From assembly GCA_000331975.1 (NCBI GenBank), contig CP003263.1, forward strand, positions 120,001 through 152,000: a stretch of DNA of 32,000 bases. The letters run 5' to 3'. Shown piece after piece: positions 4,660 to 30,661 of the stretch; the stretch's first letter is position 1; each line of letters begins with the position of its first letter. The translations under genes were made by a program, and so were the position numbers. Origin of the DNA: Candidatus Uzinura diaspidicola str. ASNER. Its GTDB lineage: Bacteria; Bacteroidota; Bacteroidia; Flavobacteriales; Blattabacteriaceae. The notes under the pieces are model-generated. The model was given only the letters and a program-made list of their open reading frames with translations, made no database searches and was not told where the DNA came from.

Positions 4660-5883
4660 ATGGCAGAATTTATAACTATGCCCCGATTAAGCGATACAAT
4701 GGAAGAGGGGATTATAATAAAATGGCATAAAAAAGTTGGTGAAAAGATTTCAGAAGGAGATTTATTAGCTGAAATAGAAACTGACAAAGCAATTCAAGAA
4801 TTTGAATCAGAATTTAATGGCTATATACAATATATAGGAATACCAGAAGGTAAAAGTGCAAAAGTAGATAGTTTACTAGCAATTATAGGAGAAAGTACAG
4901 AGACAAAAATAGATATAAATAATATACTTTCTCTATATAAAACTAAGAATAAAACTAAGAATGAAACTAAGAATGAAACTAAGAATGAAACTAAGAATGA
5001 AACTAAGAATGAAACTAAGAATGAAACTAAGAATGAAAGATTTTTAGTTTCTCCATTAGCAAAAATAATGGCAAAACAAAAGTCAATTTCTTTAGAAGAT
5101 ATTAAAGGAAGTGGAACAAATGGACGAATTATAAAAAGAGATATAGAAAAATATCAAATAGATATTTCTAAAAATATTAATGCTTCTACTACTCATTTAA
5201 CTGCAAATGCAGTTATTAACTCTTCAATAAGAAAAATAATTGCCAAAAGGCTAGCAGAATCTAAGTTTACTGCTCCTCACTATTACTTGATGATGGATAT
5301 TGATATGAAAAATTCTATTAAATCTAGGTCAATCATCAATAAAAATTTAAAAGAAGAAGAAAAAATATCTTTTAATGATTTTATTATTAAAGCGGCTGCT
5401 TTATCCTTAAAAGACAATCCTCAAATAAATTCTTCATGGAAAAATGATAAAACTATTTATCATAGTAATATTCATATTGGAATAGCTATAGCGGTAGAAG
5501 AAGGTTTACTTGTCCCTGTAATTCTTCATGCAGATAAAAAAACCCTTCTACAAATTTCTTTAGAAGTTAAAGAAAAAGCTAGAAAAGCTAGAACCCGTAA
5601 GATTTCTCAAGAAGAAATGGAAGGAAGTACTTTTACAATTTCTAATTTAGGTATGTTTGGTATAGAAAGTTTTACCTCTATTATCAATCAACCAAATTCT
5701 TGTATTCTTTCTGTTGGTGCAATTTTGGAAAAACCTATTATAAACAATGGTTTAGTTGTTCCAGGAAATATTATGAAAATAAGTTTAGCTTGTGATCATC
5801 GTGTAGTAGATGGAGCTATTGGAAGTAGCTTCTTACAGAGTATTAAAAAATATTTAGAAGATCCAATTCTTATGATAATTTAA
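4660..5883 (+). CDS. pdhC: Dihydrolipoamide acetyltransferase (E2) of the pyruvate dehydrogenase complex
   Basis: Lipoyl domain ([11 protein letters not shown]...ETDKA), peripheral-subunit-binding domain ([27 protein letters not shown]), and catalytic domain with DHRVVDG. I moved the start to ATG 4660 ([10 protein letters not shown]). Confidence 0.9.
4939..5034 (+). repeat. In-frame 12-bp tandem repeat, 8 copies (2 x AAAACTAAGAAT, then 6 perfect GAAACTAAGAAT), encoding KTKN-KTKN-(ETKN)x6 in the E2 inter-domain linker
   Basis: Read directly from the sequence. The period is 12 and the copies run head to tail from 4939 to 5034, with a partial GAAA following. Confidence 0.96.
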
Positions 5884-8315
5884 AATATCTTAATTGTTTC
5901 AACAGCAGCAATCGTATCTCCTTTTTTTAAATTTATCAATTTAACTCCTTGTGTAGCTCGCCCCATAATTCGTAGCTCTGAGACAGATAATCTAATGGTA
6001 TAACCAGATTTATTAATTATGATTATATCATTGGTCTCTGTTACATTTTTAATAGCAATTAAATTTCCTGTTTTTCTAGTAATATTAAAGGTTTTCACTC
6101 CTTTACAATATCTATTAGTTACTCTATAATCATCTAACAAAGATCTTTTTCCATATCCTTTTTCTGAAACTACTAAAATATCCTCTTTTATTTCTTTTTC
6201 TATGCATACCATTCCTATAACTTTATCATTTTTTTCTATAAGGTTTATTCCTACTACTCCAATAGCAGTTCGTCCCATTGAACGAACTTTATCTTCTGAA
6301 AATCTAATGGCTTTACCACTTTTAATAGCTAAAATAATTTCACATTGTCCGTTAGTTAGTTTAGCTTCTAGCAGCTTATCTCCTTCACGAATAGAAATTG
6401 CCTTTATTCCATGTATTCTCGGCTTAGAATACTGTCCTAAAGGCGTTTTTTTTATATTTCCATTCTCTGTTACCATTACAACATAATGTTTTTTCACATA
6501 TTTAGAATCCTTAAAATTACCTAGAATAATATATGCTTGTACTTTATCTTCTGGTAGAATTTGAATCAAGTTCTGTATAAATCTTCCCTTAGATTTTTTA
6601 GATCTTTCAGGAACCTCATAAACACGCTTACAATAACATTTACCTTTTTTTGTAAAAAGAAGCATATATTGATGGTTTGATGCTACGAGTATATGTTCTA
6701 GAAAATCTTCATTTTTTGTGCTAGCTCCTCTATTTCCTATACCCCCTCTCAATTGTCTTTTATATTCTGAAAGAGGAGTACGTTTTATATATCCCTTATT
6801 AGAGATAGTTAATACCATCTGTTCATCGTAAATTAAATCTTCTATAGTTACTTCTTTACCAAAAGATTCAATTAATGTCCTGCGAGGATCTGAATATTTA
6901 TTCTTAATTTCTAGTAATTCATTTTTTATTATTTTCATACTAAGTTGCTTGTGTTCAAGAATTTCTTGATTTTTTTTTATAGACTTAGAAAGTTCATCAA
7001 CCTCATATTTGATTTTTTCATGTTCCAATCCTGTTAAACGTTGTAGACGTATATCTAAAATAGCACGAGTCTGTCTTTCAGACAATTTAAATTTTTTTCC
7101 AAGTTCTTCACAGGCTTTATCAGGTGTTTTAGAAGTTTTAATATGAGTAATTACTATATCTAAATTATCTAATGCCACCAATAATCCATCCAAAAGATGA
7201 CACCGATCTTTTGCTTTTTGCAACTCAAATTGAGTCCTACGAATAACAATCTCATGCCTATGAGAGACAAAATATTTAATTAACTTTTTTAAGTTAAGCT
7301 GTAGGGGTTGTCCATTTACTAATGCGATATTATTGATGTTAAATGATGTTTGTAACATTGTTTTTTTAAACAAATTATTAAGTATAATATTTGGCGAGGC
7401 ATCTTGTTTTAAGTTGAAAACAATACGAATTCCTTTTCGATTAGATTCATCACGAATATTTAAAATTCCTTCTAATCTACCTTCTTTAACTAATTCGGAA
7501 GTTTTAGAAATCATTTCTGCCTTATTAACTTGATAAGGGATTTCATCTACAATAATACAATTTCTTTTGTTTATTTCTTCTAATCTAACTTTAGCACGTA
7601 AAATTATTCTGCCTTTTCCAGTTCTAAAAGCTTCCTGTATTCCTTCTATTCCATAAATAATTCCCCCAGTAGGAAAATCAGGAGCTTTTATATATTTAAT
7701 AAAATCATCAACATTAATTTCAGGATTATCAATATAAGCACAAATAGCGTCTATGCACTCACATAAATTATGAGGAGCCATATTAGTTGCCATACCAACT
7801 GCAATTCCCGAAGAACCATTCATTAAAAGGTTTGGAATGCGAGTAGGAAGAACAGTAGGTTCTTCTAAGGAATCGTCAAAATTAAATTGAGTTTTGACAG
7901 TTTTTTTATCAAGCTCAGTGAGCATTTCTTCAGAGATTTTTTGCAAACGCACTTCTGTATATCTCATTGCAGCTGGAGAATCACCATCTACAGAACCAAA
8001 ATTACCTTGTCCATCTATCAATAAATAACGTAAAGACCATGCTTGTGCCATTCTTACCATAGTTTCATAAACAGAAATATCGCCATGAGGATGATACTTA
8101 GCAAGAACTTCACCAACGACCCTAGCAGATTTTTTATATGGTCTATTGAATATCATACCAAGTTCATACATACTAAAAAGCACACGTCGATGCACAGGTT
8201 TTAATCCATCTCTAACGTCAGGTAAGGCTCTTGAAACTATAACAGACATAGAATAGTCTATGTAGGATGTTTTTATTTCATTTTCAATATTAATCGGTAT
8301 AAGGTTTTCAGACAT
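5880..8315 (-). CDS. gyrA: DNA gyrase subunit A (the portion from the internal ATG at 8315; no stop codon separates it from the aroB frame upstream)
   Basis: From M360 of the 1170-aa ORF: [54 protein letters not shown], and QGNFGS..D.AAMRYTE with the active-site Tyr context. C-terminal beta-pinwheel repeats follow. 811 aa, a normal GyrA length. Confidence 0.95.
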
Positions 8316-9392
8316 ATTAAAATTTAATTTTTTTATTAAGAGAAGTGCATTTTTAATGTTTTCCATAGAAATTTTATGATCAAAACTACAGTTACCAATT
8401 AATTTTAATAAGGAAAATCTTATGTATCCTTTTATATTTTTCTTATCATGTTGTATATGATTAATAATTTTTTGTATTACAAAAGTTTTAATGATGGGAA
8501 AACTATAACTATCTAAAATAGTATTTTTAATATCTTCGTATTGCGATATAGGAAACTTATTAAAAAGGTAAGAAATCCATGATTCACAAATAATTCCTAT
8601 TGCTATAGCTTCTCCATGTAAAAAAGTAAAATTCTCTATGAGAAAAGAACTCTCTATTCCATGTCCTATTGAATGACCAAAATTAAGGATTTTTCGTAAT
8701 CCTTTTATTTCATAAGGATCTTTTTTAACAATATTTTGTTTTATAGTTATAGATGCAAAAATTTCTGCATTCCAGATATATTTTTTTTCTATAAATTTAT
8801 TTTTAAGTTTTATCCATAGATTTTTATCGTAAATCAACCCATGTTTTAAAATTTCTGCTTTACCTGAAATTATTTCTCTATAACATAAGGTTTTCAAATA
8901 ATGAAAATCTATAATAATAATTATAGGAAAACTAAATACTCCAATTTCATTTTTAATATGATCTAAGTCTATTCCAGTTTTTCCTCCAATAGAGGCATCT
9001 ACCATAGACAACAAAGTAGTCGGAATATGAATAAAATCAAAGCCTCTCTTATAAATAGAAGCAGAAAATCCTCCTATATCATTAATAACTCCTCCTCCTA
9101 AATTTATAAGAAGGCTATTTCTATCAGCTCTACATGCTGATAGAGATCTCCAAATATAGAGAGAACTTTCTATATTTTTAACTTTTTCTCCAGGAGAAAT
9201 ACATATAACTTGAGATTTTCTTAAAAAAGAAACTTTATTTTGTAAATGTTTTAAACAGAATTTATATGTATTTATGTCACATAAAATAAATAATTTTGAT
9301 CTATTATTTTTAGATAGATATTTTTTAAATTTTTTGTATGATGTTTTTCCAAAAAAAATAGGATAATTTGTTGTTGATATTATTTTTTTCAC
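8316..9392 (-). CDS. aroB: 3-dehydroquinate synthase, full length but lacking its own stop codon; it reads directly into gyrA
   Basis: The first 359 codons of the 1170-aa ORF carry [34 protein letters not shown] and HGEAIAIG, which match the nucleotide and metal binding motifs of AroB. Length matches free-standing AroB (about 360 aa). The last codons K-L-N-F-N are followed at once by the gyrA ATG. Confidence 0.88.
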
Positions 9393-9428
9393 TAAGCTAA
9401 AATAGACATTTTTATAAAATAGTATGCA

Positions 9429-10337
9429 TTAATCAATAAAAGTCATAATACGATTTAAAAAATATAATGGATTTTCTCTATCCCAATCACTACTAATTAA
9501 AGTAGGTAATGCCCCAATATATGGAATCTAACTATAGTTATATTTATTAGTTTCTTTTCCATTTAGAATAATTTTTTTCCCATGTTTATATTTGATATAT
9601 AGATAATATCTCCTTTTTTTGGAACAAATAATGGACCGTAATTATCAATATTTCTTGTAAAACTTATAGTTTTCAATGTTGCTAGTTTTTTAGCATATAA
9701 GGATGTAAGAAAAATTTTGTATAGATAATATTTTATTGTTCTTTTTTTTGTTCATATTTAAGAAATATGATATCGTGTTCAAAGGAATTTCTTTTGTTTT
9801 CTTTAATTTTCCCTCTTTAATTTTCCCTCTTTAATTTTCCCTCTTTAATTTTCCCTCTTTAATTTTCCCTCTTTAATTTTCCCTCTATCTACCTGTAGAT
9901 ATTGGATGCCATCATAATCGTATAGATAGTTAAATACACTTGTTTCCCCTTTTTTTAGCTTAGTAAATTCTGGGAGTCTTAGATCTAATGGTATAGTTTA
10001 TTGAAAAAGAGGAATGCGTAAACCGTATTCTCCAATTAATAAAGTTCGTTCAATAGAAGAGCTAGGGATAAGCTAATATTATTGCTTCAAATATCACCGT
10101 ATCTTTATTTAGATTATGAAAAGGAAGATAATTTATATCCATATATGTAAAATCCAAATAGAATATAAACTCTACCCAAAGAATTCCATTCATTATTACA
10201 GATATAACAGTGAGAAAAAATAATATTAGCCTACAAGCAAAAAGGACCAAAACTTATGTATCAGCTTTCTGATAAAGACGCCAAGTACCTATAAAATATA
10301 TCAACTGTAAAATTATAAAGTTGGGAATAAAATTCAT
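9429..10337 (-). pseudogene. lepB: Signal peptidase I remnant with multiple stops, frameshifts and internal deletions
   Basis: Minus-strand fragments lie in different frames. ATG at 10337 gives MNFIPNFIILQLIYFIGTWRLYQKADT* (flavobacterial LepB N-terminus type ...LGTWKLY.KAG). A catalytic Ser box LIPSSSIERTLLIGE lies near 10045-10080. YGLRIPLFQ*...RLPEFTKLKKGETSVFNY follows. RNIDNYGPLFVPKKGDIIYI lies near 9590-9650. The C-terminus reads IPYIGALPTLISSDWDRENPLYFLNRIMTFID* with the stop at 9429-9431. The position directly downstream of dapB fits what I recall of flavobacterial gene order (not checked here). Confidence 0.75.
9801..9884. repeat. Perfect 14-bp tandem repeat CTTTAATTTTCCCT, 6 copies, inside the lepB remnant
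   Basis: Read directly: six identical head-to-tail units from 9801 to 9884, followed by a partial CT. The unit length is not a multiple of three. Confidence 0.97.
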
Positions 10338-10340
10338 AGC

Positions 10341-11045
10341 TTAATCTATCTCTAGTACATCTTTCATAGAAAATATTCCTTTTTTATAATTTATCCATTC
10401 TGCAGCAATAATAGCTCCTAGCGCAAAGCCTTCTCTTTTAAGAGCTGTATGCTTAAAAATAATATTTTCTATAACTGATTGATATTTTACTACATGTATA
10501 CCAGGGGAATTTTTAAAACGTTTTGAACTTATTGCTAATTGGTATTGTTTTTTTTTTCCCAAAACCCATTTTTTAGCTATACCTTCTTTTATTAGAAATT
10601 TAGCTAATTTTATAGCTGTTCCGCTTGGAACATCTTTTTTATTTACATGGTGTATTTCTTCTATTTCTACTTCATATTCTTTTTTATAAGACTTGATAAG
10701 TTTAGCGAACTTTCTACTTATTTCAATAAATAGATTAACCCCAATACTAAAATTAGATGCATATAAAAAAGTACCTGAATTTCTTAAGCAAATATTTTTA
10801 ATTTCTTCCATTTTAAATAACCATCCAGTAGTACCAGAAATTACAGAAATATTCTCTTCCAGGCAAATTTTGATATTTGCAAACGCAAATTCTGGATGGC
10901 TAAATTCTATAGCAACCTCCACATTTTTAAGATCTTTATATGTTGGGCAAAATATACTTTTAAGCAAAATATTATGTTGGCGATTTAAAGCTATTTTTTC
11001 AATAGCTTTACCCATTCTCCCAAAACCAATTAGTGCTAATTTCAT
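10341..11045 (-). CDS. dapB: 4-hydroxy-tetrahydrodipicolinate reductase
   Basis: N-terminal Rossmann motif MKLALIGFGRMGK, then EIHHVNKKDVPSGTA (the dapB signature E.HH..K.DAPSGTA). 234 aa. Confidence 0.9.
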   Translation of the reverse strand: MKLALIGFGRMGKAIEKIALNRQHNILLKSIFCPTYKDLKNVEVAIEFSHPEFAFANIKICLEENISVISGTTGWLFKMEEIKNICLRNSGTFLYASNFSIGVNLFIEISRKFAKLIKSYKKEYEVEIEEIHHVNKKDVPSGTAIKLAKFLIKEGIAKKWVLGKKKQYQLAISSKRFKNSPGIHVVKYQSVIENIIFKHTALKREGFALGAIIAAEWINYKKGIFSMKDVLEID

Positions 11046-11191
11046 AGTATATGACTATATTAAAAAAGAAGTAAGAACAATAGATAATTATTTAAATAAA
11101 TCATATGTCCATTGATTTATCTATCAAAAAAAAATTATATTCACCTATAATTAAAAATTAAAATCTTCGTAGATTAGAAAGTATAATAAGA

Positions 11192-11270
11192 GCCTATGTG
11201 GTGAAATTGGTAGACACGCTATCTTGAGGTGGTAGTATTAAAAATGCTGGTTCGAATCCAGTCGTGGGCA
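11192..11270 (+). tRNA. tRNA-Leu (anticodon GAG), class II with a long variable arm
   Basis: GCCTATG TG GTGAAATTGGTAGACAC G CTATC TTGAGGT GGTAG TATTAAAAAT GCTGG TTCGAAT CCAGT CGTGGGC A. The acceptor, anticodon and T stems pair by hand. The anticodon loop is TTGAGGT. Confidence 0.88.
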
Positions 11271-11283
11271 CATAAAGATTTAT

Positions 11284-11577
11284 AAAGTAGGACACTTTAT
11301 TGCATTTTATCATTCAACGATAAATGAGGAAAGTCCGGGCACTGGGTTTAGCACAATGGGTAATACCCATCCATTGCGAAATGAGGATAAGTGCAACAGA
11401 AAGAAAATATAGCTAGGTTGTAGTGAAATCAGGCAAACTCTGTGCTGTGAAATGCCATTTTTACCGGTAAAATTTAGCCCAACCTTCCGGTTGGTCGGCA
11501 GTTAGCGATAAGTGGTAACTCTTATTCTAGATAAATAATAAAGGTTACAAACAGAATCCGGCTTATAGCTCTACTTT
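11284..11577 (+). ncRNA. rnpB: RNase P RNA (bacterial type A, reduced to about 294 nt)
   Basis: Universal P4 halves are present: GAGGAAAGTCCGGGC (11326-11340) and ACAGAATCCGGCTTAT (11551-11566). Other conserved blocks are AAGTGCAACAGAAAG, TAGTGAAATCAGGCAAACTC and TTCTAGATAAATAA. A P1 pairing joins AAAGTAG (11284-11290) with CTACTTT (11571-11577). The ends are approximate. Confidence 0.88.
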
Positions 11578-12528
11578 TTTTCTTTTTATTACTCTTTTTA
11601 CTTTTTTTACAATAGAAGTTTTATCTATTTTATATTTTTTAATAAGTTCTATTTGTTTCCCACTTTCTCCAAAAGTATCATTAACTGCTACAAATTCTTG
11701 AGGTTTAGGGAGATGATTTACTAAAATACGTGCAATACTTTCACCTAATCCTCCTAAATAGTTATGTTCTTCAGCTGTGACTACACAGCCAGTTTTTTCA
11801 ATAGATTGAAGAATAAGTTCTTCATCAAGAGGCTTTATAGTGTGAATATTAATAATATCACAGGTAATTCCTTCTTCTACTAAAGTTTTATATGCTTTAA
11901 GTGATTCCCAAACTAAATGTCCAGTTGCAATGATACTGACATCATTTCCTTCCGTTAAAACAATACCTTTACCAATTTTGAAATCATGGTTCTTAGTAAA
12001 ATTGGGTACTGAAGGTCTTCCAAATCGTAAATAAGTAGGTACTTCAGACTTAGATATTGCTAATGTAGCTTTATATGTTTGAGAAAAATCACAAGTATTT
12101 ATAACTGTCATTCCTGGAAGCATCTTTATCATTCCTATGTCTTCTAAGATTTGATGTGTTGCCCCATCTTCACCTAAACTAATTCCAGCATGTGAAGCAC
12201 ATATTTTAACATTTTTTTCTGAATAAGCAATAGACTGACGAATTTGGTCATAAACTCTAGAAGAAGAAAAATTAGCAAATGTCCCAGTAAATGGGATACA
12301 GCCGCCAATAGCTAAACCAGCAGCCATTCCTATCATATTTGATTCTGCAATTCCTACTTGAAAAAACCTTTCAGTAAACTCTTCAGAAAACCTTTTCATG
12401 CAAAGTGATCCTGTTAAATCAGCGCAAAGAGCTACTATTCTTTCATTATTTCTCCCTAATTCTAAAAGAGCTTCGCCAAAACCTGCCCTAGTTTCTTTTA
12501 ACTCTTTTTTATAACTATCATTTATCAT
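11563..12528 (-). CDS. tkt: Transketolase, C-terminal section (pyrimidine-binding and C-terminal domains)
   Basis: RAGFGEAL, FQVGIAESNMIGMAAGLA and SHAGISLGEDGATHQ. 321 aa. Its start overlaps the end of the N-terminal section by 11 nt. Confidence 0.9.
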   Translation of the reverse strand: MINDSYKKELKETRAGFGEALLELGRNNERIVALCADLTGSLCMKRFSEEFTERFFQVGIAESNMIGMAAGLAIGGCIPFTGTFANFSSSRVYDQIRQSIAYSEKNVKICASHAGISLGEDGATHQILEDIGMIKMLPGMTVINTCDFSQTYKATLAISKSEVPTYLRFGRPSVPNFTKNHDFKIGKGIVLTEGNDVSIIATGHLVWESLKAYKTLVEEGITCDIINIHTIKPLDEELILQSIEKTGCVVTAEEHNYLGGLGESIARILVNHLPKPQEFVAVNDTFGESGKQIELIKKYKIDKTSIVKKVKRVIKRKKVEL

Positions 12529-13357
12529 AATCTCCTATAGTTTCAGGAAGTTGATGCAATGCTTTTTTAAGTTCTTCATCGTTTGGCGATTTACCATGCC
12601 ATTGATAGGACCCATTCATAAAGTCTACGCCATGTCCCATTTCTGTATGTAGAATTATACATATTGGTTTACCTTTTTTTGCTTTTTTTTTAGCCTTTTG
12701 TAATATTTTTATAACAGAATTAATGCAGTTTCCTTTAGTTTCTTCTAAAACCTGCCATCCAAATGATTCAAATTTCATTTTAATATTGCCCAAATGCATC
12801 ACTTTATCAGTATTTCCATCAATTTGTTGATGATTATAATCTATAGTAGCAATATAATTATCTACTTTTTTAGCTCCTGCATATAAAATAGCTTCCCAAT
12901 TTTGGCCTTCATTAATCTCACCATCTCCATGATAACTATACGATAAATAAGAGTCATTATAAATTGTTTTTGCTTGGGCAGCTCCTAATGCTACTGACAT
13001 ACCTTGTCCCAGAGACCCTGATGCTACATGTATTCCTGGTAATTTTTCATATACACTAGGATGTCCTTGTAAACGAGAGTTAATTGTTCTAAATTTAGTT
13101 AGTTCATCTATGGAAAAATACCCTTTGCGAGCTAAAACACTATACAAAACAGCAGAAATATGTCCATTAGATAGAAAAAACATATCTTCTTCTTTTCCTT
13201 CTATTTTTTTTGTCTGAAAAGACATTATTTTATAAAAAAGTGCTATAAAATATTCAGTAGAGCCTAAAGATCCCCCAGGATGTCCTGATTTTGCATTATG
13301 TATCATCCTTAAAATATCTCTTCTAGTTTGTAAACTTATTTCTTTAAGATATATCAT
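12518..13357 (-). CDS. tkt: Transketolase, N-terminal section (ThDP-binding domain)
   Basis: SGHPGGSLG, LSNGH, and GDGEINEGQNWEA (the GDG..EG ThDP motif). 279 aa. The split two-gene form occurs in many bacteria. Confidence 0.9.
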   Translation of the reverse strand: MIYLKEISLQTRRDILRMIHNAKSGHPGGSLGSTEYFIALFYKIMSFQTKKIEGKEEDMFFLSNGHISAVLYSVLARKGYFSIDELTKFRTINSRLQGHPSVYEKLPGIHVASGSLGQGMSVALGAAQAKTIYNDSYLSYSYHGDGEINEGQNWEAILYAGAKKVDNYIATIDYNHQQIDGNTDKVMHLGNIKMKFESFGWQVLEETKGNCINSVIKILQKAKKKAKKGKPICIILHTEMGHGVDFMNGSYQWHGKSPNDEELKKALHQLPETIGDYDK

Positions 13358-13359
13358 AT

Positions 13360-14380
13360 ATAAAATATTATTTGCTTTTCTATGATCCCTATAGAACCAA
13401 TTTCAAGTATACGATTACATACAGTTTTTATCAATTCATGATAGAACATAAGTATTGTTCCTTTGAACGATATTAATGAGTTAAACGGGAATTGACTCAA
13501 GGTCAACGCATTTTTTCACCCTGAAAGAACTCTATTTTAAGAGAATCATGCTCCGTACCTAGAACCCTCTAATATATTCTTCTTGTCTTTTCTTTTGTTT
13601 AAGAAGGAAGTATGTTCTCTTAGTCGTTATGACCCATGTAAAATCACATTTTTAAAGGTGAAGCTATTCCTGATAGTGGAATGCTTGGCTATTTTTTCTA
13701 CCCTTTTTAAGGTTAGGTAGATATTTTTAAATAGTGGTTTTCCATTAAGGAGTAGAAAGGTTTTGAGCTCCTGCTGATCGTTCTTGTTCAAAAGAATAGT
13801 GGGAAATTACTTATTGTAGTAAGGTTTAATTTCTTCTAGAACTTAATCTTTGCGTTTTTCCTCTATTTTTTTGTTTTTTTGTGATTTTTGTTTGGTAGCT
13901 AGATTGATAATAAAAACTATAATTTCCTGTAAATCTATATCACAAATAGAAAATATCTATCATTAGATACAACAATTACTGTATTTCATACATTTGCTAA
14001 AAAATCTTCTAACCATCTTATAGTTTCTAGGTCAAGGTGATTCCCAAAAAGAGCATTGAGCTAGTAATCTTTAAATTTTCCATCCATTTCGTGCTAAGTT
14101 TTTTATGTTGCAGATATCTAAAATATCATCCTCCCATTTGTTCATATTTTTACTCTAATTCACCAGCTATAATCCCATCTTGTTCTGAAAATTTGTTTTT
14201 AGCATATAGCGCATCCATTTCTTTTTTATCTTGCAGCCAGAAATATGATCTTGTTCTCCTGAAAGGACTTTTTACGGATCTAAAATATCCAATGATTCCA
14301 TAACAATTACCCTTTTTTTCAAAAATATGTTTCCCTCCAAATTGAAAAGAAAGATTAGAAACTGTATAGATACTCTATAT
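13360..14380 (-). pseudogene. ABC-F family ATP-binding protein remnant (EttA/Uup/YbiT-like); frameshifted, Walker A deleted, 3' end missing
   Basis: Minus-strand fragments in shifting frames: [31 protein letters not shown] (no ATG, and a stop immediately upstream); [42 protein letters not shown] (a D-loop/H-loop region typical of ABC-F); and a second-domain piece GTILMFYHELIKTVCNRILEIGS. About 1.0 kb remains of an expected 1.6-1.9 kb. Confidence 0.7.
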
Positions 14381-14429
14381 ATTTATTATTATTATTTTTA
14401 ATAAAAATAATCTATTTAGAATACAAATT

Positions 14430-14870
14430 TTGTATAAGGAAATATTATTTTTCAATAGAAAAGCTCTTTTTAATTACGATTTTTTTGAATCGTATATAGC
14501 AGGAATCCAACTATTTGGAACAGAAATAAAATCAATAAGATTGAATAAAGTTTCTATTTCTGAAAGTTTTTGTAAAATGCAAAATAATGAACTTTATATT
14601 ATAAATATGTTCATATCAAAATATGAATGGGTTACAACATTTGAAAATTATTCTCCACGTAGAGACAGAAAATTACTTATGAAAAGTTCAGAGCTAAGAA
14701 AAATAGAATGCAAAATTAAAAAATATCGTTTTACGATAATTCCAACGAAATTATTTATTAATAAGAAAGGTTATGCCAAACTTAAAATTGTTTTAGCAAA
14801 AGGAAGAAAATTAGTTAATAAACGTGATATTATCAAATATAAAGAAATAGAAAGAGATATAATTAACTAA
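14430..14870 (+). CDS. smpB: SsrA-binding protein SmpB
   Basis: NRKALFNYDFFESYIAGIQLFGTEIKSIR...LYIINMFISKY is the canonical SmpB core. The start is TTG at 14430. 146 aa. Confidence 0.9.
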   Translation: MYKEILFFNRKALFNYDFFESYIAGIQLFGTEIKSIRLNKVSISESFCKMQNNELYIINMFISKYEWVTTFENYSPRRDRKLLMKSSELRKIECKIKKYRFTIIPTKLFINKKGYAKLKIVLAKGRKLVNKRDIIKYKEIERDIIN

Positions 14871-15290
14871 CAATATTTAAAATTTTAGTAGTATAAGGAA
14901 TAAACATACTTAATAAATCAGAAGGAGTAATAGCAGCAGAAATTACTAATATAAGTAAAGTTAAATTCGTAATAATAGAAATATAATCAGTTTCTGGTAA
15001 GTTGCTTACTTTAAAAGTTTCTCCAAATTGGATATAAAATTACCAAAAAAAAGTACTAAAATAAATAAAATAGAAGAAGATAGAATGACCTGGCGTCTAA
15101 TAAAACACCAAAGTTCATAAAAATATGTAAGGAAAAGCCAATATTATTCCTCCTATTATATTTACACAAATATAAGTATTGAATTGCCCTAACATTTGTC
15201 TCTTTTGTAAAGATTTTAATAAGTGTTCTCTAAACTCTTCTATATGGTCCCAAAATAATTGTGGTATTATAGTGGAAACACTTGCTTTGT
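14863..15290 (-). pseudogene. tatC: Twin-arginine translocase subunit TatC remnant
   Basis: Minus-strand fragments: FWDHIEEFREHLLKSL (the TatC N-terminal HLEELR motif, from about 15255), then ...IIGGIILAFPYIFL*, then FY*TPGHSIFFYFIYFSTFFLVILYPIW.NF*, then DYISIITNLTLLILVISAAITPSDLLSMFIPYTTKILNIVS* (the TatC ..TPPD motif region). About 430 bp remains of about 800. There are several in-frame stops and no ATG. Confidence 0.65.
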
Positions 15291-15315
15291 AGTATAGAAG
15301 TAATAATGGATACTC

Positions 15316-15474
15316 TTATTTAGATTTTCTTTGAAAGAAATTATTTATATGATCAGCTATAACAATTTTTTCTTCAAAGAAATACGTTTTTGATTTTTGT
15401 GATTTAATCATTCGTATAACTCTGGTTCTTTTTTTTGTCAAATTATCTGGTGATTTTTGAATATTTTTTATCAT
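15316..15474 (-). CDS. Small basic protein of the DUF4295 type (52 aa), absent from the supplied ORF track
   Basis: The ATG at 15474 lies 1 nt after the rpmG stop. The translation is MIKNIQKSPDNLTKKRTRVIRMIKSQKSKTYFFEEKIVIADHINNFFQRKSK*. As far as I recall, its size, charge and position after rpmB-rpmG match the conserved Bacteroidota DUF4295 gene. Not checked here. Confidence 0.6.
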   Translation of the reverse strand: MIKNIQKSPDNLTKKRTRVIRMIKSQKSKTYFFEEKIVIADHINNFFQRKSK

Positions 15475-15475
15475 T

Positions 15476-15661
15476 TTATTTAATTTCTTTATGAATAGTA
15501 TATTTTTTTAATATAGGATTGTATTTTTTAAGTTTAAAGGTAAAGGTGTATTTTTTTATTTTTGTACATATATAACGAGAAACACCAGATTTTCCACTTT
15601 TTTTGTGCTCCGTGCACTCAAGAATAATTTGTATTCTATTTGTTTTTACTTTTTTTGCCAT
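15476..15661 (-). CDS. rpmG: 50S ribosomal protein L33
   Basis: [23 protein letters not shown]...[13 protein letters not shown]. 61 aa, a typical L33. Confidence 0.9.
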
Positions 15662-15896
15662 TGTTTATATTAATAATAGTAATTCTTTTAGCTAGAGCTT
15701 TTTGTATTCCAATAGAATTTATAATCTTAATTCCTGCTGCTGATACTTTTAATCTAATCCATTTTTTTTCTTGTGAAAGATAAAAACGTTTATTAAACAA
15801 ATTAATATCAAACCTGCGTTTTGTTCTATTATTAGAGTGAGATACAGTATATCCTACTATAGATTTTTTTCCTGTAATTTGACAAAATCTTGACAT
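15636..15896 (-). CDS. rpmB: 50S ribosomal protein L28
   Basis: [33 protein letters not shown]. 86 aa. The lysine-rich C-terminal tail overlaps the rpmG start by 26 nt. Confidence 0.9.
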
Positions 15897-15950
15897 ATTT
15901 ATTAAATATAAAATTTTTTATATTTGACATCTATATAAAAAAATCTTCTC

Positions 15951-16301
15951 TTGAAATTAGATAATTATTCTGTTCTTAAAGCTATTCTAAATAGCATAGA
16001 AAAAATAAAAGGAACAAATATTAAGATTATAAATCTAACAAAAATAGAAAATATTCTTTTTGATTATATCCTAATTTGTAGTGCAAGTTCTTCAATACAA
16101 GTTTCTTCTATTGTTAGTTCAGTAAAAGAGAAAATTATAGGAGAAAAACCTTTTCACATTGAAGGACTAATAAATGCTCAATGGGTATTAATGGATTATG
16201 ATAATATTTTAGTAAATATTTTTCAAAAATCTATAAGAAAATATTATGATCTAGAAACACTTTGGTTGAAAAGGCTTCTTAAAAAGAAAATGATGATTTG
16301 A
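15951..16301 (+). CDS. rsfS: Ribosomal silencing factor RsfS (iojap family)
   Basis: DYILICSASSSIQVSSI...EGLINAQWVLMDYDNILVNIFQKSIRKYYDLETLW is the RsfS core. TTG start. 116 aa. Confidence 0.85.
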   Translation: MKLDNYSVLKAILNSIEKIKGTNIKIINLTKIENILFDYILICSASSSIQVSSIVSSVKEKIIGEKPFHIEGLINAQWVLMDYDNILVNIFQKSIRKYYDLETLWLKRLLKKKMMI

Positions 16302-16309
16302 AAAATCAA

Positions 16310-17717
16310 ATGTATAAGAAAAGGAAAAAAAATCTTTATATTATTTATAAGGCTTATAATACTTTTTTTCTTAATGAAGAGCTTTTTTTTAAGAAAACAT
16401 AATATTTTTGTTAATGTCTGGATTAATAAGTTCCATTTATTTTAGATTTGAAATTGGAGATTTGATATATACAGAAATATTTATGAATTAGATTCTATCT
16501 TATTCTTTAAAAATAAAGAAGGGTATAAAATCAAAAAGTTTCTTTTATATTACTTATTTTTTTTCGTATTAACTTTTTTTTGTGGTAGTTTCCTATTTAA
16601 ACGTATACTAAAAAAAGTAGAAGAATCTAATAGTAATAAATACAAAGGTAAAATTTGTTATGAGAGAAATAATATTGATATTACGTTTCAAGACATAGCA
16701 GGTATTGAAAGTACAAAGGAAGAAATAGAAGAAATTGTAGAGTTTCTTAAAAAGCCTATTAAATATTATTGGAAGGGAAAATCCCAAAAGGAGTTCTTTT
16801 AATTGGTCTTCCTGGTACTGGAAAAACTTTATCAGCTAAAGAAGTTGCAGGTGAAACACAAGTTCCTTTTTTTGCTTTATCTGGGTCTGATTTTGTAGAA
16901 ATGTTTGTAGGAGCGTCTCGTGTAAGAGATCTTTTAAGAAAGCAAAAGCTAAATCTCCTTCTATTATTTTTATTGATGAAATAGATGCAATAGGTCGTAC
17001 TCGTAGTAAAAATAATTATATATCTAATGATGAAAGAGAAAATACTTTAAATAAATTGCTTACAGAAATGGATGGTTTTGCTACTAAAACAAATATTCTT
17101 GATAAAGCACTTTTACGTCCTGATTTAAAAGAAAGAAAAGAAATTTTTCAAGTACATATTAGAAAGTGTAGATATCTGGCTTTAGTGGAGCAGCGTTGAT
17201 AGCTGCTAAAAAAAATCAAAATAGAATTGAACATCAGGATTTTTCTGATGCTGTATCTGGGGTAGAAAAAAAAGATAAAAGAATAAAATTTCATGACAAA
17301 CTTATAAGTTGGCTTTTAGAATTTTCAGACCCTTTAGTAAAGGTAACTATTATCCTTCGGTGAAAATCTTTAGGGTCTACGTGGTATATTACTGTCGATA
17401 GACAAATATGTGTTTTATTGGGAGGTAGAGCAGCTGAAGAAATAATTTTTGGTAATTTCCTTACAGGAGCACTTAATGATTAAGAAAATGCTACGAAACA
17501 AGCAAAGTCTATAGTAATTATATTTGGTTTAAATAAACGTATTGGAAATATTTCTTATTATGATTCTTCTGGAGAAGATGAATATACTTTCAATAAGCCT
17601 TATAGTGAAACTACTGCATATATTATTGATGAAGAAATATATCAAATTATAGAAGAGCAATATCAACGTTCTTGTAAAATTCTTGAAAAAGAAATATTGC
17701 CAATAAAATTATTTTGA
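16310..17717 (+). pseudogene. ftsH: ATP-dependent zinc metalloprotease FtsH remnant
   Basis: Fragments in three frames: [30 protein letters not shown]; a shift; [54 protein letters not shown]; a shift; [23 protein letters not shown]...[30 protein letters not shown] and RFDRQ are deleted. [14 protein letters not shown] follows. The HEXXH zinc site is lost. LGGRAAEEIIFGNFLTGALND*ENATKQAK carries a TAA at 17481-17483. About 1.4 kb remains of about 1.9-2.0 kb. The position after rsfS fits what I recall of flavobacterial gene order (not checked here). Confidence 0.85.
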
Positions 17718-17751
17718 GTATAAAAAATATATAATATGTACTTGATTAGAA

Positions 17752-19635
17752 TTATTTTACTTCTTCAAAATCAATGTCTTGTACATTTTCAGATTCAGAA
17801 GAATTTTTTGGAGAATTGTTGGTAGAATTTTTTGGAGAATTGTTGTATAATTCTTGTGAAGCTTCTATCCAAGCATCATTAAGTTCTTTTTTTGTACGCT
17901 CAATTTCGATTATTTGTTTTGATTTACAAGCCATTTTACAATCATTTAAATTATCTTCTATTTTTTTCTTCTTTTCTGTAGAAAGTTTATCCCCATAATC
18001 TTTAAGTTGTTTTTCTGTTTGAAAAATTAGTGCATCAGCTGCATTAAGGGTATCAATTTCTTCTTTTGTTTTTTTATCTTTCTCAGCATTTTCTTGTGCC
18101 TCACGTTTCATTCTTTCAATTTCTTTTTGGTTTAATCCTGAAGAAGCTTCAATACGTATGGACTGTTCTTTTCCAGTTTCTTTATTTTTAGCAGAAACAT
18201 TTAAAATTCCATTTGCATCAATATCGAATGTTACTTCAATTTTAGGAATTCCTCTAGGAGCTGGCGGAATATCTATAAGATCAAAGCGTCCTATTTCTTT
18301 ATTATCATTAAACATAGGTCGTTCCCCTTGACCAACACGTATTGTTACTGCTGACTGATTATCTTCAGCAGTAGAAAATAATTCTGATTTTTTTGTTGGA
18401 ATAGTAGTATTTGCAGAAATAAGCTTAGTAAATACTCCACCTAAAGTTTCTATACCTAAAGATAGCGGTGTTACATCTAATAGAAGAACATCTTTTATGT
18501 CTCCAATAAGAACTCCTCCTTGAATAGCTGCCCCTATAGCTACTACTTCATCCGGATTTACACCTTTTGAAGGTTTTTTCCCAAAAAACAATTCTACTTC
18601 TTCTTGAATTTTAGGTATTCTTGTGCTTCCACCTACTAAAATTACTTCATCAATATTTTTAGTAATAAGTCCGGCTGCTTCTAAAGCTTTTTTACAAGGT
18701 GACATTGAACGACGAATTAACTCATCGGAAAGTTTTTCAAATTTTGCTCTTGTAATAGTTTTTACTAGATGTTTAGGACCTGAATTAGTTGCTGTAATAT
18801 ATGGTAAATTAATTTCAGTTTGAATACTAGATGATAATTCTATTTTAGCTTTTTCTGCTACCTCTTTTAATCTTTGATGAGCCATAGAATCTTCTCGTAA
18901 ATCAACCCCTTCTTCTGATTTAAAACTATCTGCTAAAAAATTTATAATAATATCATCGAAATCATCTCCTCCAAGCTTTGTGTCTCCATTAGTAGCTAAT
19001 ACTTCAAAAACACCATCACCTAATTCAAGAATAGAAATATCAAAAGTGCCTCCTCCTAAGTCATATACAGCAATTTTCTTATCTTGTTTGCTTTTATCTA
19101 ATCCGTATGCTAATGCAGCTGCCGTAGGCTCATTAATAATTCTCTCTACTTTTAACCCTGCAATTTCTCCAGCTTCTTTAGTAGCTTGTCTTTGTGCATC
19201 ATTAAAGTAAGCTGGAACTGTTATAACAGCACGATTTACCTCTTCCCCAAGATAATCTTCTGCCGTTTTTTTCATTTTCTGTAATATCATTGCAGATATT
19301 TCTTGTGGAGAATATAACTTATTTTTTATATTTACTCGGGGGGTATTATTAGGACCTTTTTCTATTTTATAGGTAACCCGATCTATTTCATAAGAAATCT
19401 CTGAAAATTTAGCTCCCATAAATCTTTTTATAGAAAAAATAGTATTTTGAGCATTCGTTACAGCTTGACGTTTTGCTGGATCTCCTATTTTAATTTCACC
19501 GCCTTCAACAAAAGCTACCATAGAAGGTGTAGTGCGTTTCCCTTCAGAATTAGGAATTACTGTTGGATCATTTCCTTCCATTACAGCAACGCAGGAATTG
19601 GTTGTTCCTAAATCAATACCAATAATTTTATTCAT
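17752..19635 (-). CDS. dnaK: Molecular chaperone DnaK (Hsp70)
   Basis: [40 protein letters not shown], and a C-terminal ..DIDFEEVK tail. 627 aa. Confidence 0.97.
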
Positions 19636-29962: not shown

Positions 29963-30383
29963 AAAAACTAAATATAAAAAAGAACAAAAAGGGCGTATAA
30001 AGGGTAATGCTATGAGAGGTAATATGCTTTCTTTTGGCACTTTTGGATTAAAAAGCTTAGAGTCCAATTTTATTACCTCTCGTCAAATTGAAGCAGCACG
30101 TGTAGCAGCTACACGCTATATTAAACGAGAAGGCCAATTGTGGATTAATATTTTCCCAGATAAACCACTTACAAAAAAACCACAAGAAGTAAGGATGGGA
30201 AAAGGAAAAGGTATAGTAGAATTATGGGTAGCTACTGTAAAACCTGGTCGTATTTTATTTGAGTTGAGTAGCAATATTACATTAGACAACGCAAAAGAAG
30301 CTTTACGTCTAGCTGCTCAAAAACTACCTATAAAAACTAAATTTATCATTTCTAATGATTATACGTTTTCAAACTTAATTTGA
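29949..30383 (+). CDS. rplP: 50S ribosomal protein L16
   Basis: [55 protein letters not shown] stop. Confidence 0.95.
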
Positions 30384-30406
30384 AGAATTCTTATATTCAG
30401 CTTAAT

Positions 30407-30661
30407 ATGAAAAGAAATTTAAGAAAAGAAAAAATTGGGCTAGTAACCAGCAATAAAATGAATAAAACTATTATTGTATCTGAAACTAAACGTGTAAAAC
30501 ATTCTACTTATCTGAAACCTATATCTATAACTAAAAAATATATAGCTCACGATGAAAATAATAGTTGTAATATAGGAGATTTAGTTCAATTAATGGAGAC
30601 ACGACCACTAAGCAAAAGTAAACGTTGGAGATTATTTGGGATAATAGAAAAAGTTAAATAA
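30407..30661 (+). CDS. rpsQ: 30S ribosomal protein S17
   Basis: [37 protein letters not shown]...[30 protein letters not shown] moved the start to ATG 30407, because the TTG at 30380 overlaps the rplP stop. Confidence 0.92.

Follow-up and report, generated by a model that had tools for sequence, protein, structure and literature searches.

Four pseudogenes in Candidatus Uzinura diaspidicola ASNER: a probable stepwise loss of export and membrane quality-control genes, and a separate loss of an ABC-F ATPase

Gene decay in tiny symbiont genomes (Buchnera, Sulcia, Hodgkinia/Tremblaya) runs from relaxed selection through inactivating lesions and small deletions to erasure, and secY and ftsH are among the most widely retained genes, even in very small genomes. 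The genome publication for Candidatus Uzinura diaspidicola ASNER is reportedly that of Sabree et al. in 2013 (Environ Microbiol 15:1988). ASNER lives in an armoured scale insect and has a genome of 263,431 bp with 227 CDS (PMC3971599), recorded as 89.3% coding with 7 pseudogenes (Rosas-Perez et al. 2014, PMC3971599 Table 1); Sec and Tat are absent from Uzinura, as are ATP synthase, cytochrome c, cbb3 oxidase and NADH dehydrogenase (PMC3971599 Table 3). Its sister genus Walczuchella, a flavobacterial symbiont of giant scale insects, has a genome of ~0.3 Mb (Choi et al. 2025, PMC12188211; PMC3971599), in which secretion and trafficking (COG U), envelope (M) and energy (C) are the categories most often lost or pseudogenised (PMC12188211). 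Like Uzinura, it has an ancient, tiny flavobacterial genome with secretion losses, and recognisable pseudogenes are many in Walczuchella (27-83; PMC12188211; PMC3971599), contrary to an earlier sequence-only reading of the ASNER locus, which took them to be rare in old minimal symbionts. However, Walczuchella mostly keeps its Sec and Tat genes or has them freshly pseudogenised, and co-symbionts are present, whereas ASNER represents an end-state with wrecks only and no listed partner. Uzinura also resembles the general erosion model in that the same slot is found at different decay stages in different lineages, but differs from it in that its wrecks survived a split between lineages and can still be aligned over most of the length of the ancestral genes.

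ASNER itself was examined in a single window, a stretch of 32,000 nucleotides, and was compared with seven other Uzinura-like lineages (A-G; eight in total). Two proteins, SmpB and RplE, match their ASNER counterparts at 100% identity and so establish the source of the window. The tblastn queries were intact orthologues taken from a sister lineage with a less reduced genome, and lesions were counted against the intact lineage-A genes. The four genes that the sequence-only reading had named, and their position at 9429-17717, proved correct, and the locus is organised as follows.

9438..10337, minus strand: lepB pseudogene (signal peptidase I, N-terminal DUF5684 part), from tblastn; slot 9393-10340
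9800..9886, no strand: perfect tandem repeat, 14-nt x 6.2, within the lepB remnant (TRF, 100% matches, score 174)
10341..11045, minus strand: dapB, intact neighbour, 234-aa ORF
11563..13357, minus strand: split transketolase, intact; ORFs tktC 11563-12528 and tktN 12518-13357
13366..14371, minus strand: ABC-F pseudogene (YbiT-like translation ATPase); tblastn match from 14365 to 13366; slot 13358-14429
14430..14870, plus strand: smpB, intact (Pfam SmpB)
14950..15261, minus strand: tatC pseudogene (tblastn E 5e-20), alignable across slot 14871-15315
15316-15474, minus strand: DUF4295, intact ORF, kept in all sister loci
15476-15661, minus strand: rpmG, intact ORF, kept in all sister loci
15636-15896, minus strand: rpmB, intact ORF, kept in all sister loci
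15951-16301, plus strand: rsfS, intact ORF, kept in all sister loci
16298..17690, plus strand: ftsH pseudogene (tblastn E 1e-160); slot 16302-17751
17752..19635, minus strand: dnaK, intact neighbour, 627-aa ORF

The four slots are the only intergenic gaps >150 bp in the window. Intact genes interleaved with the remnants are dapB (whose orthologues carry DapB_N and DapB_C domains in all sister loci), tRNA-Leu, rnpB, the split tkt, smpB, DUF4295, rpmG, rpmB, rsfS and dnaK. That the four genes are dead is borne out by 9-26 indels, 2-7 in-frame stops and a 27-44% loss of length in each; the indels are mostly deletions of 4-108 nt. The lepB remnant, located between aroB and dapB and syntenic with intact lepB in L005 and L172, matches the intact 465-aa lineage-A LepB over aa 1-465 in 3 frame pieces (38-42% identity, E 2.6e-37, tblastn) and carries 23 indels (13 frameshifting), 503 nt of deletions and 5 stops, and in the alignment to intact lepB the tandem repeat takes the place of the catalytic-lysine box region. 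The ABC-F remnant extends over aa 3-521 of 521 in at least three frames (tblastn with the orthologues intact in lineages A, B and E; for the nearest intact gene, E about 1e-43), with 26 indels (21 frameshifting), 561 nt deleted, 7 stops, a start codon changed from ATG to ATC and a destroyed first Walker A; the best profile for its intact orthologue is NCBIfam NF011646, ABC-F family ATPase. The tatC remnant, syntenic with the intact tatC of L172, lacks 132 nt at the 5' end and has 9 indels (5 frameshifting) and 2 stops. The ftsH remnant, whose start overlaps the stop of rsfS as in intact orthologues, consists of 4 pieces in 3 frames (aa 1-597 of 642, tblastn), with 17 indels (9 frameshifting), 4 stops and the loss of 410 internal nt and of 78 nt at the 3' end, both the HEAGH zinc site and the arginine-finger segment being deleted. 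Stitched translations of ftsH (AAA, Peptidase_M41) and tatC (TatC, 38.9 bits vs a cut-off of 25.1) still pass the Pfam gathering scores; the lepB and ABC-F translations now fall below them. No intact second copy of these genes was found by tblastn in the window, and an ASNER FtsH protein is missing from a database of 5.8 billion proteins, though other ASNER proteins are present there; for lepB, tatC and ABC-F, the lack of second copies elsewhere in the genome is taken from the literature.

Across the eight lineages, the four genes and secY, which lies ~15 kb downstream in the conserved gene order and outside the window, were in the following states.

Lineage A: lepB, secY, ftsH, ABC-F and tatC present, tatC with one frameshift in a T10 run
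Lineage F: tatC, ftsH and ABC-F intact; lepB as two ORFs; secY not sampled
Lineage B: lepB and tatC erased; secY a wreck; ftsH and ABC-F intact
Lineage C: secY, lepB and tatC erased; ftsH intact; ABC-F a wreck
Lineage G: tatC a trace; ftsH and ABC-F wrecks; lepB and secY not sampled
Lineage D: all export genes erased; ABC-F freshly broken
Lineage E: secY, lepB, tatC and ftsH wrecks; ABC-F intact
ASNER: lepB, ABC-F, tatC and ftsH wrecks; secY beyond the window, reported absent (PMC3971599, from which its absence is taken)

The lineage E states were seen in three independent assemblies. A slot may thus be anything from intact to erased within the clade, and the longest contigs range from 184 to 321 kb; genomes in the clade are still shrinking. 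Examined in the sister lineages, secY (intact in A, a pseudogene in E and B, deleted in C and D) tracks lepB and tatC, and the three genes decay jointly, while loss of ftsH with tatC and lepB intact occurs in none of the eight lineages. Two NJ trees with distant outgroups place A as sister to the rest (98% support) and group ASNER with D and E (100%) and B with C and G (87%), the order within ASNER/D/E differing between the trees, as does the placement of lineage F (59% vs 36% support). These groupings imply at least two independent losses of ftsH, both where tatC was already gone, and the trees would allow for either one or two independent losses of lepB and tatC. Coordination is not strict, since ftsH is intact in B and C, both of which lack lepB and tatC and have a secY wreck or none. 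It could be that lepB, tatC and ftsH are functionally unlinked and were merely the last dispensable genes to go, as the persistence of ftsH in two lineages without export genes, the clearly unrelated function and timing of ABC-F and the small sample of eight lineages with uncertain branching would permit; we consider such a coincidence unlikely, however, because the states of secY, lepB and tatC co-vary, ftsH went twice independently, both times within lineages that had lost export genes, the whole of Sec and Tat is reported absent from ASNER (PMC3971599), and the same functional categories decay together in Walczuchella (PMC12188211). The functional co-loss proposed by the sequence-only reading stands for lepB, tatC and ftsH, as one set being dismantled with secY, but does not extend to ABC-F. 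The co-loss of the three genes is already known; Rosas-Perez et al. 2014 (PMC3971599) neither date the losses nor compare these lineages.

An intact ABC-F is present in lineages A, B, E and F; in ASNER, C, D and G the gene is broken, and the copies of ASNER, D and C have no lesion in common. Its lineage-specific changes fall on the three codon positions as 24:30:22 in ASNER, 20:7:34 in E and 17:10:32 in B. Its intact state in E means that ABC-F and the export genes died at different times. It was lost at least three times independently and without relation to the export-gene losses, and the independent breaks in ASNER, D, C and G take this YbiT-like translation factor out of any shared loss. 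As an unrelated, presumably ribosome-associated ATPase, it would have died separately, early on the ASNER branch, and likewise independently in at least two other lineages.

The age of the other losses can be judged from the ASNER-E comparison. Divergence at codon positions 1/2/3 is.199/.202/.243 for ftsH,.253/.266/.283 for lepB and.293/.269/.278 for tatC, estimates that the alignment of degraded sequence can bias. With tktC (.041/.028/.208, hence under purifying selection) and dnaK (.052/.015/.204) as intact-gene controls, along with gyrA (.074/.028/.200) and aroB (.084/.047/.173), divergence of the three remnants equals or exceeds the third-position divergence of intact genes. ASNER-specific ftsH substitutions fall on the codon positions as 32:36:31. 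An exact 27-nt ftsH deletion is common to ASNER and E; it is in frame and may date from a time when the gene still worked, or have occurred separately in each lineage. Taken together, the flat divergence and the common deletion indicate that lepB, tatC and ftsH were unconstrained before the ASNER-E split, and the losses are thus old, not the outcome of recently relaxed selection as had been suggested. A recent, ASNER-specific and coordinated relaxation, for instance on moving to another host compartment or acquiring a co-symbiont, with all four genes dying together, might be read from four recognisable wrecks within 8.3 kb and from an ftsH remnant still 57-85% identical in protein to intact orthologues. 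It is largely refuted, and very improbable, given the age of the losses, the wrecks of lepB, tatC, ftsH and secY in lineage E and the different time of death of ABC-F; complementation by a co-symbiont finds no support, no partner symbiont being listed for ASNER in a review table.

The four wrecks seem to lie close together by coincidence, through the gene order of the ancestor. With uniform placement, four pseudogenes within 8.3 kb have P ~0.004 if the genome holds only 7, but 0.02 for 10 and 0.11 for 15, in a post hoc test that depends on the published total of 7 being right; the clustering is thus nominally non-random, and coincidence is the sole explanation that we offer. That low P, and the position of secY, a wreck in E, so near downstream, might point to an 8-kb mutation or deletion hotspot, or a low-expression stretch, decaying regardless of function. 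There seems little chance of this, however, as interleaved genes, under strong purifying selection, diverge by.015-.047 at second positions against.20-.27 in the ftsH, lepB and tatC wrecks, the slots have lost ~28% of their ancestral sequence (~1.6 of 5.7 kb) whereas adjoining genes keep the lengths of their orthologues, and in other lineages the same genes are lost and the same neighbours always kept. Each wreck would rather have decayed by itself, being parted from the next by intact essential genes and having its own lesion set, with no single event spanning them.

The notion that the genes are alive, through sequencing or assembly errors, transcriptional slippage, programmed frameshifting or an altered genetic code, can practically be set aside: slippage-rescuable homopolymer frameshifts are known in symbionts (a caveat in PMC3971599), and the lineage A tatC has exactly one such T10 frameshift, but the ASNER lesions are mostly multi-base deletions, not single-base homopolymer changes, stops and length losses affect every remnant, neither the zinc site of ftsH nor the lysine-box region of lepB is left, ABC-F has lost its start codon and first Walker A, substitutions are even across codon positions, ~40 genes around the remnants read without interruption under table 11, and UGA is not reassigned in Uzinura (PMC3787670).

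The four wrecks are thus non-functional, and we think it probable that the export and quality-control set was lost in a cascade following the loss of its clients, that ABC-F went separately, and that the clustering reflects gene order. lepB, tatC and ftsH, with secY, would be leftovers of the machinery for inserting, exporting, trimming and policing membrane and secreted proteins. The published losses of the respiratory chain, ATP synthase and envelope synthesis would have come first; with few Sec and Tat clients left, secY, lepB and tatC may then have lost constraint, a link between respiration and export that we infer; and without a translocon or membrane-protein flux to police, ftsH would have become dispensable later, an order shown by the comparison across lineages. 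Constraint on lepB, tatC and ftsH would already have gone in the ancestor that ASNER shares with E, its nearest relative in the sample, and neutral decay by many small deletions would have followed; the wrecks are still recognisable only because deletion is slow and neutral divergence modest (ASNER-E third position ~0.2). Overall, the picture is one of ordinary genome erosion.

The window comes from Candidatus Uzinura diaspidicola str. ASNER, a flavobacterium that lives inside the armoured scale insect Aspidiotus nerii and whose genome is published: SmpB and ribosomal protein L5 of the window show 100% identity to proteins recorded under that name, on a single contig of 263,431 bp. The window is AT-rich (G+C 24-32%) and tightly filled with housekeeping genes. 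Only four non-coding stretches exceed 150 bp (9393-10340, 13358-14429, 14871-15315 and 16302-17751), and in lineage A, the least reduced of seven other Uzinura-like lineages (A-G) compared here with the studied genome, ASNER, the same four slots are occupied by intact LepB (465 aa), ABC-F (521 aa), TatC and FtsH (642 aa) (locus L005). When these lineage-A proteins were searched against the window by tblastn, all four matched, each over several frames. Lesions were counted from nucleotide alignments, and the combination of indels, stops and lost motifs confirms that lepB, an ABC-F gene, tatC and ftsH are all dead, as the sequence-only reading had claimed.

Gene order of the window and remnants of the four dead genes
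First block: lpdA', obg, tRNA-Lys, aroK, tilS, pdhA, pdh E2 gene, aroB+gyrA
10337 to 9438, minus strand: lepB remnant, between aroB and dapB; tblastn E = 2.6e-37 over aa 1-465 of lineage-A LepB
After the lepB gap: dapB, tRNA-Leu, rnpB, tktC, tktN
14365 to 13366, minus strand: ABC-F remnant; tblastn match to aa 3-521 of intact orthologues
After the ABC-F gap: smpB
15261 to 14950, minus strand: tatC remnant; tblastn E = 5e-20
After the tatC gap: DUF4295, rpmG, rpmB, rsfS
16298 to 17690, plus strand: ftsH remnant; tblastn E = 1e-160 to intact orthologues sited between rsfS and dnaK
After the ftsH gap: dnaK, then rplM through rplE

The stitched translation of the ftsH remnant, made by joining the frame pieces, passes the Pfam cut-offs for AAA (98 bits) and Peptidase_M41 (105 bits), and an intact orthologue scores 756 bits on TIGR01241. 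It carries 17 indels (9 of them frameshifting) and 4 in-frame stops; the HEAGH zinc site has gone with a 33-nt deletion, and the AATNR and GRFDR segments, which carry the arginine fingers, with deletions of 33 and 36 nt. By homology and synteny it descends from FtsH, and it is no longer a functional member, the frame, the HEXXH motif and the second region of homology all being broken. An intact Uzinura FtsH query matched only seven Uzinura-type FtsH clusters in the protein database, none of them from ASNER. The tatC remnant retains about 440 of 795 nt, is short of 132 nt at its 5′ end and carries 9 indels (5 frameshifting) and 2 stops; its stitched translation passes the Pfam cut-off for TatC (PF00902, 38.9 bits). 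The homology is thus preserved, and the sequence no longer encodes the full six-helix protein in one frame.

No Pfam match was obtained with the stitched translations of the other two remnants, so that both are identified from synteny and from tblastn matches to intact orthologues in sister lineages. Intact lineage-A LepB combines DUF5684 with Peptidase_S26 and reaches 128 bits on TIGR02227. The lepB remnant has accumulated 23 indels (13 frameshifting) and 5 stops, and a perfect 14-nt tandem repeat of 6.2 copies (9800-9886) occupies the site of the lysine box; homology and synteny point to lepB, of which no open frame carrying the catalytic Ser/Lys dyad is left. Short tandem duplications are also found in the lineage E wrecks of lepB, tatC and secY (L001, L089), which suggests that neutral DNA in these symbionts often mutates by replication slippage. 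ABC-F ATPases are soluble proteins with two nucleotide-binding domains and a linker, a group to which the translation factors YbiT and EttA belong. The intact orthologues of the window's ABC-F gene (521 aa) have the domain order ABC_tran, ABC_tran_Xtn, ABC_tran, and the best NCBIfam match of one of them is NF011646 (ABC-F family ATPase), where its score of 600 bits falls short of the model's 762-bit cut-off; the gene is accordingly predicted to encode a YbiT-like ABC-F ATPase and not a membrane ABC transporter. In its remnant the ATG has become ATC, the first Walker A motif is destroyed, and there are 26 indels (21 frameshifting) and 7 stops, so that the start codon, the open frame and a complete pair of Walker A/B sets are lacking.

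Sequencing error or slippage rescue can be discarded for ASNER, given the number, size and kind of the lesions, most of which are deletions of 4-108 nt. An alternative genetic code is likewise out, since about 40 neighbouring genes are clean under table 11 and Uzinura is reported to keep the standard bacterial code, with UGA not reassigned (PMC3787670).

Some further features of the gene arrangement were recorded. The 3′ ends of rnpB (11284-11581, plus strand) and tktC (11563-12528, minus strand) overlap by 19 nt (11563-11581), a case of extreme gene packing. Next to the lepB gap, aroB and gyrA form a single ORF of 1170 aa (5880-9392, minus strand; junction at about 8316): five sister lineages read 'AAATATAAATTTTAAT ATG' at the end of aroB, and in ASNER a 1-nt deletion just before the stop removes the TAA, so that aroB runs in frame into the gyrA ATG. 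This is either a real AroB-GyrA fusion, a read-through or a sequencing error. Ribosomal protein L29 seems to be absent across the whole clade, rpmC being missing between rplP and rpsQ in both ASNER (30383-30407) and lineage A (L088 9082-9105), where a gap of about 23 nt is found. In lineage A, eno lies after rplQ (L088 17753-19054); it is missing there in lineages E, C and D (L089, L090, L008), and has been reported as retained in ASNER (PMC3971599).

Public assemblies contain about 27 SmpB clusters of Uzinura-like symbionts (75-88% identity). The syntenic region was retrieved for lineages A-G, lineage E being backed by three assemblies, and the slots were scored by tblastn and alignment. Neighbour-joining trees, built from alignments of 1,725 and 2,416 residues, place A as sister to the rest (98%) and recover a clade of ASNER, D and E (100%) and a clade of B, C and G (87%); the placement of F varies, and the order inside the ASNER/D/E clade differs between the two trees and carries no weight in what follows.

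State of secY and of the four slot genes in ASNER and seven Uzinura-like lineages
Lineage A: secY intact; lepB intact; tatC with one frameshift in a T10 run; ftsH intact; ABC-F intact
Lineage F: secY not sampled; lepB present as two ORFs; tatC intact; ftsH intact; ABC-F intact
Lineage B: secY wreck; lepB erased; tatC erased; ftsH intact; ABC-F intact
Lineage C: secY erased; lepB erased; tatC erased; ftsH intact; ABC-F wreck
Lineage G: secY and lepB not sampled; tatC trace; ftsH wreck; ABC-F wreck
Lineage D: secY and lepB erased; tatC with about 270 bp left; ftsH erased; ABC-F freshly broken
Lineage E: secY, lepB, tatC and ftsH wrecks; ABC-F intact
ASNER: secY beyond the window; lepB, tatC, ftsH and ABC-F wrecks

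The tatC gene of lineage A (L005 10451-11260, minus strand) is full-length, with 264 aa, once the single frameshift in its run of ten T is repaired; it may have become a pseudogene very recently, may still work through tolerated slippage, or may have been misassembled. In lineage F, lepB (L172 4092-5407, minus strand) consists of two overlapping ORFs in different frames, one for DUF5684 (78 aa) and one for Peptidase_S26 (369 aa), which may mark the onset of lepB decay or be a natural division of the gene. Intact Uzinura-type FtsH proteins (P0241-P0247) give no match to the FtsH extracellular domain PF06480, which is matched in FtsH of Blattabacterium, Apibacter and the Geopemphigus symbiont; the periplasmic domain thus appears to be degenerate even in lineages keeping ftsH. 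Among the lineages compared, ychF is present in lineage A only.

Across the series, the states of secY, lepB and tatC change together. Inactivation of ftsH has occurred in at least two independent cases, in G and in the ASNER/D/E group, with tatC already gone each time, and in none of the eight lineages is ftsH dead with tatC and lepB intact. The functional co-loss proposed from the sequence is thus partly supported and would hold for lepB, tatC and ftsH, to which secY can be added, the states of secY, lepB and tatC co-varying and the loss of ftsH being nested within that of the export genes. Strict coordination is not supported: the loss was not simultaneous, ftsH being intact in B and C despite the lack of export genes. 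Export was lost independently once or twice, depending on where F falls, and a single loss of lepB and tatC ancestral to all lineages but A is neither established nor excluded, F keeping both genes and varying in placement. Between the secY wrecks of B and E the alignment gave no convincing shared inactivating lesions, and the codon-position data are ambiguous. The fourth gene does not belong to the set. ABC-F is dead in ASNER, D, C and G by different lesions, and E, B, F and A keep an intact copy, a pattern that differs from that of the export genes and argues that its loss is unrelated to theirs, as would be expected of a YbiT-like ribosome-associated ATPase.

The losses were dated by comparing ASNER with lineage E at codon positions 1/2/3, with intact genes as controls. 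In dnaK (.052/.015/.204), gyrA (.074/.028/.200), tktC (.041/.028/.208) and aroB (.084/.047/.173), changes are 3-14 times fewer at second than at third positions, reflecting purifying selection. The remnants of ftsH (.199/.202/.243), lepB (.253/.266/.283) and tatC (.293/.269/.278), by contrast, show flat divergence at or above the third-position level of the intact genes. ASNER-specific changes in ftsH are distributed 32:36:31 over the codon positions, versus 15:7:25 in lineage B, and ASNER and E have lost exactly the same 27 nt from the conserved GADIANLCNEAAL segment of this gene. Flat divergence and the shared deletion indicate that ftsH, lepB and tatC were unconstrained at or before the ASNER-E split, and the earlier suggestion of recently relaxed selection is not supported. 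For ABC-F, the changes are flat in ASNER (24:30:22) and constrained in E (20:7:34), so this gene must have died early on ASNER's own branch. Such old wrecks are still legible because neutral divergence since the split amounts to only about 0.1 per site per lineage and because deletion is slow in ASNER and E; in lineage D, by contrast, everything is erased and the longest contig is 184 kb. Uzinura-like lineages do vary in how thoroughly dead genes are erased, with longest contigs of 184 kb (L003/L008), 215 kb (L001), 235 kb (L006/L092) and 223-321 kb (L005/L088), and of 263 kb in ASNER. Nor are recognisable pseudogenes as rare as had been assumed: in the sister genus Walczuchella, in which the same functional categories decay, there are 27-83, and loss or pseudogenisation falls most often on genes for envelope (M), secretion (U) and energy (C) (Choi et al. 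2025, PMC12188211).

What, then, brought four dead genes together within 8.3 kb? With uniform placement, and as a post hoc calculation, the clustering has P of about 0.004 if there are 7 pseudogenes genome-wide, 0.02 if there are 10 and 0.11 if there are 15. Intact genes under strong selection separate the wrecks, each wreck has its own lesions, and the same genes decay in other lineages while their neighbours are untouched. The proximity is therefore best attributed to ancestral gene order and not to a regional process. Complementation by a co-symbiont has no support in ASNER, for which no partner symbiont is listed. The main clients of FtsH are membrane proteins and the translocon itself, and the best reading of the export and ftsH losses is a cascade of client loss. 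It would begin when respiratory chain, ATP synthase and envelope synthesis were lost, as published for ASNER (PMC3971599), a loss that may have left Sec, Tat and signal peptidase with few substrates; those export genes would then have decayed together, as the comparison of lineages shows, and FtsH would have become dispensable afterwards, in an order seen in two independent instances and with a presumed causal link.

As a discovery, the co-loss has little value. Uzinura ASNER has been described with 227 CDS, 7 pseudogenes and 89.3% coding density, and as lacking Sec, Tat, ATP synthase, cytochrome c, cbb3 oxidase and NADH dehydrogenase (Rosas-Perez et al. 2014, PMC3971599); the genome, its pseudogene count and its lack of Sec, Tat and respiratory chain are thus all published. 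Functional co-loss is in essence a correct idea, though one already in print, and describes ordinary reductive evolution in a published genome. The only new element is the comparative series over Uzinura lineages, and no comparative study of them was found in the literature searched. Its added value is modest: seven or more additional Uzinura-like lineages, with states of these slots that range from intact to erased, show that the ASNER wrecks are old, that FtsH was lost after export, and that the loss of ABC-F is unrelated and recurrent. It is conceivable, if somewhat doubtful, that dismantling is repeatable across Uzinura, with Sec, Tat and signal peptidase going first and FtsH following at least twice, that wrecks outlast lineage splits, deletion being slow relative to speciation, and that the public, apparently unanalysed assemblies (longest contigs 184-321 kb) form a natural time series towards life without SecY and FtsH. 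If so, the membrane proteome of such a bacterium would be essentially nil or supplied by the host. In a genus-wide study, the lineages could serve to date how two near-universal bacterial functions are lost.
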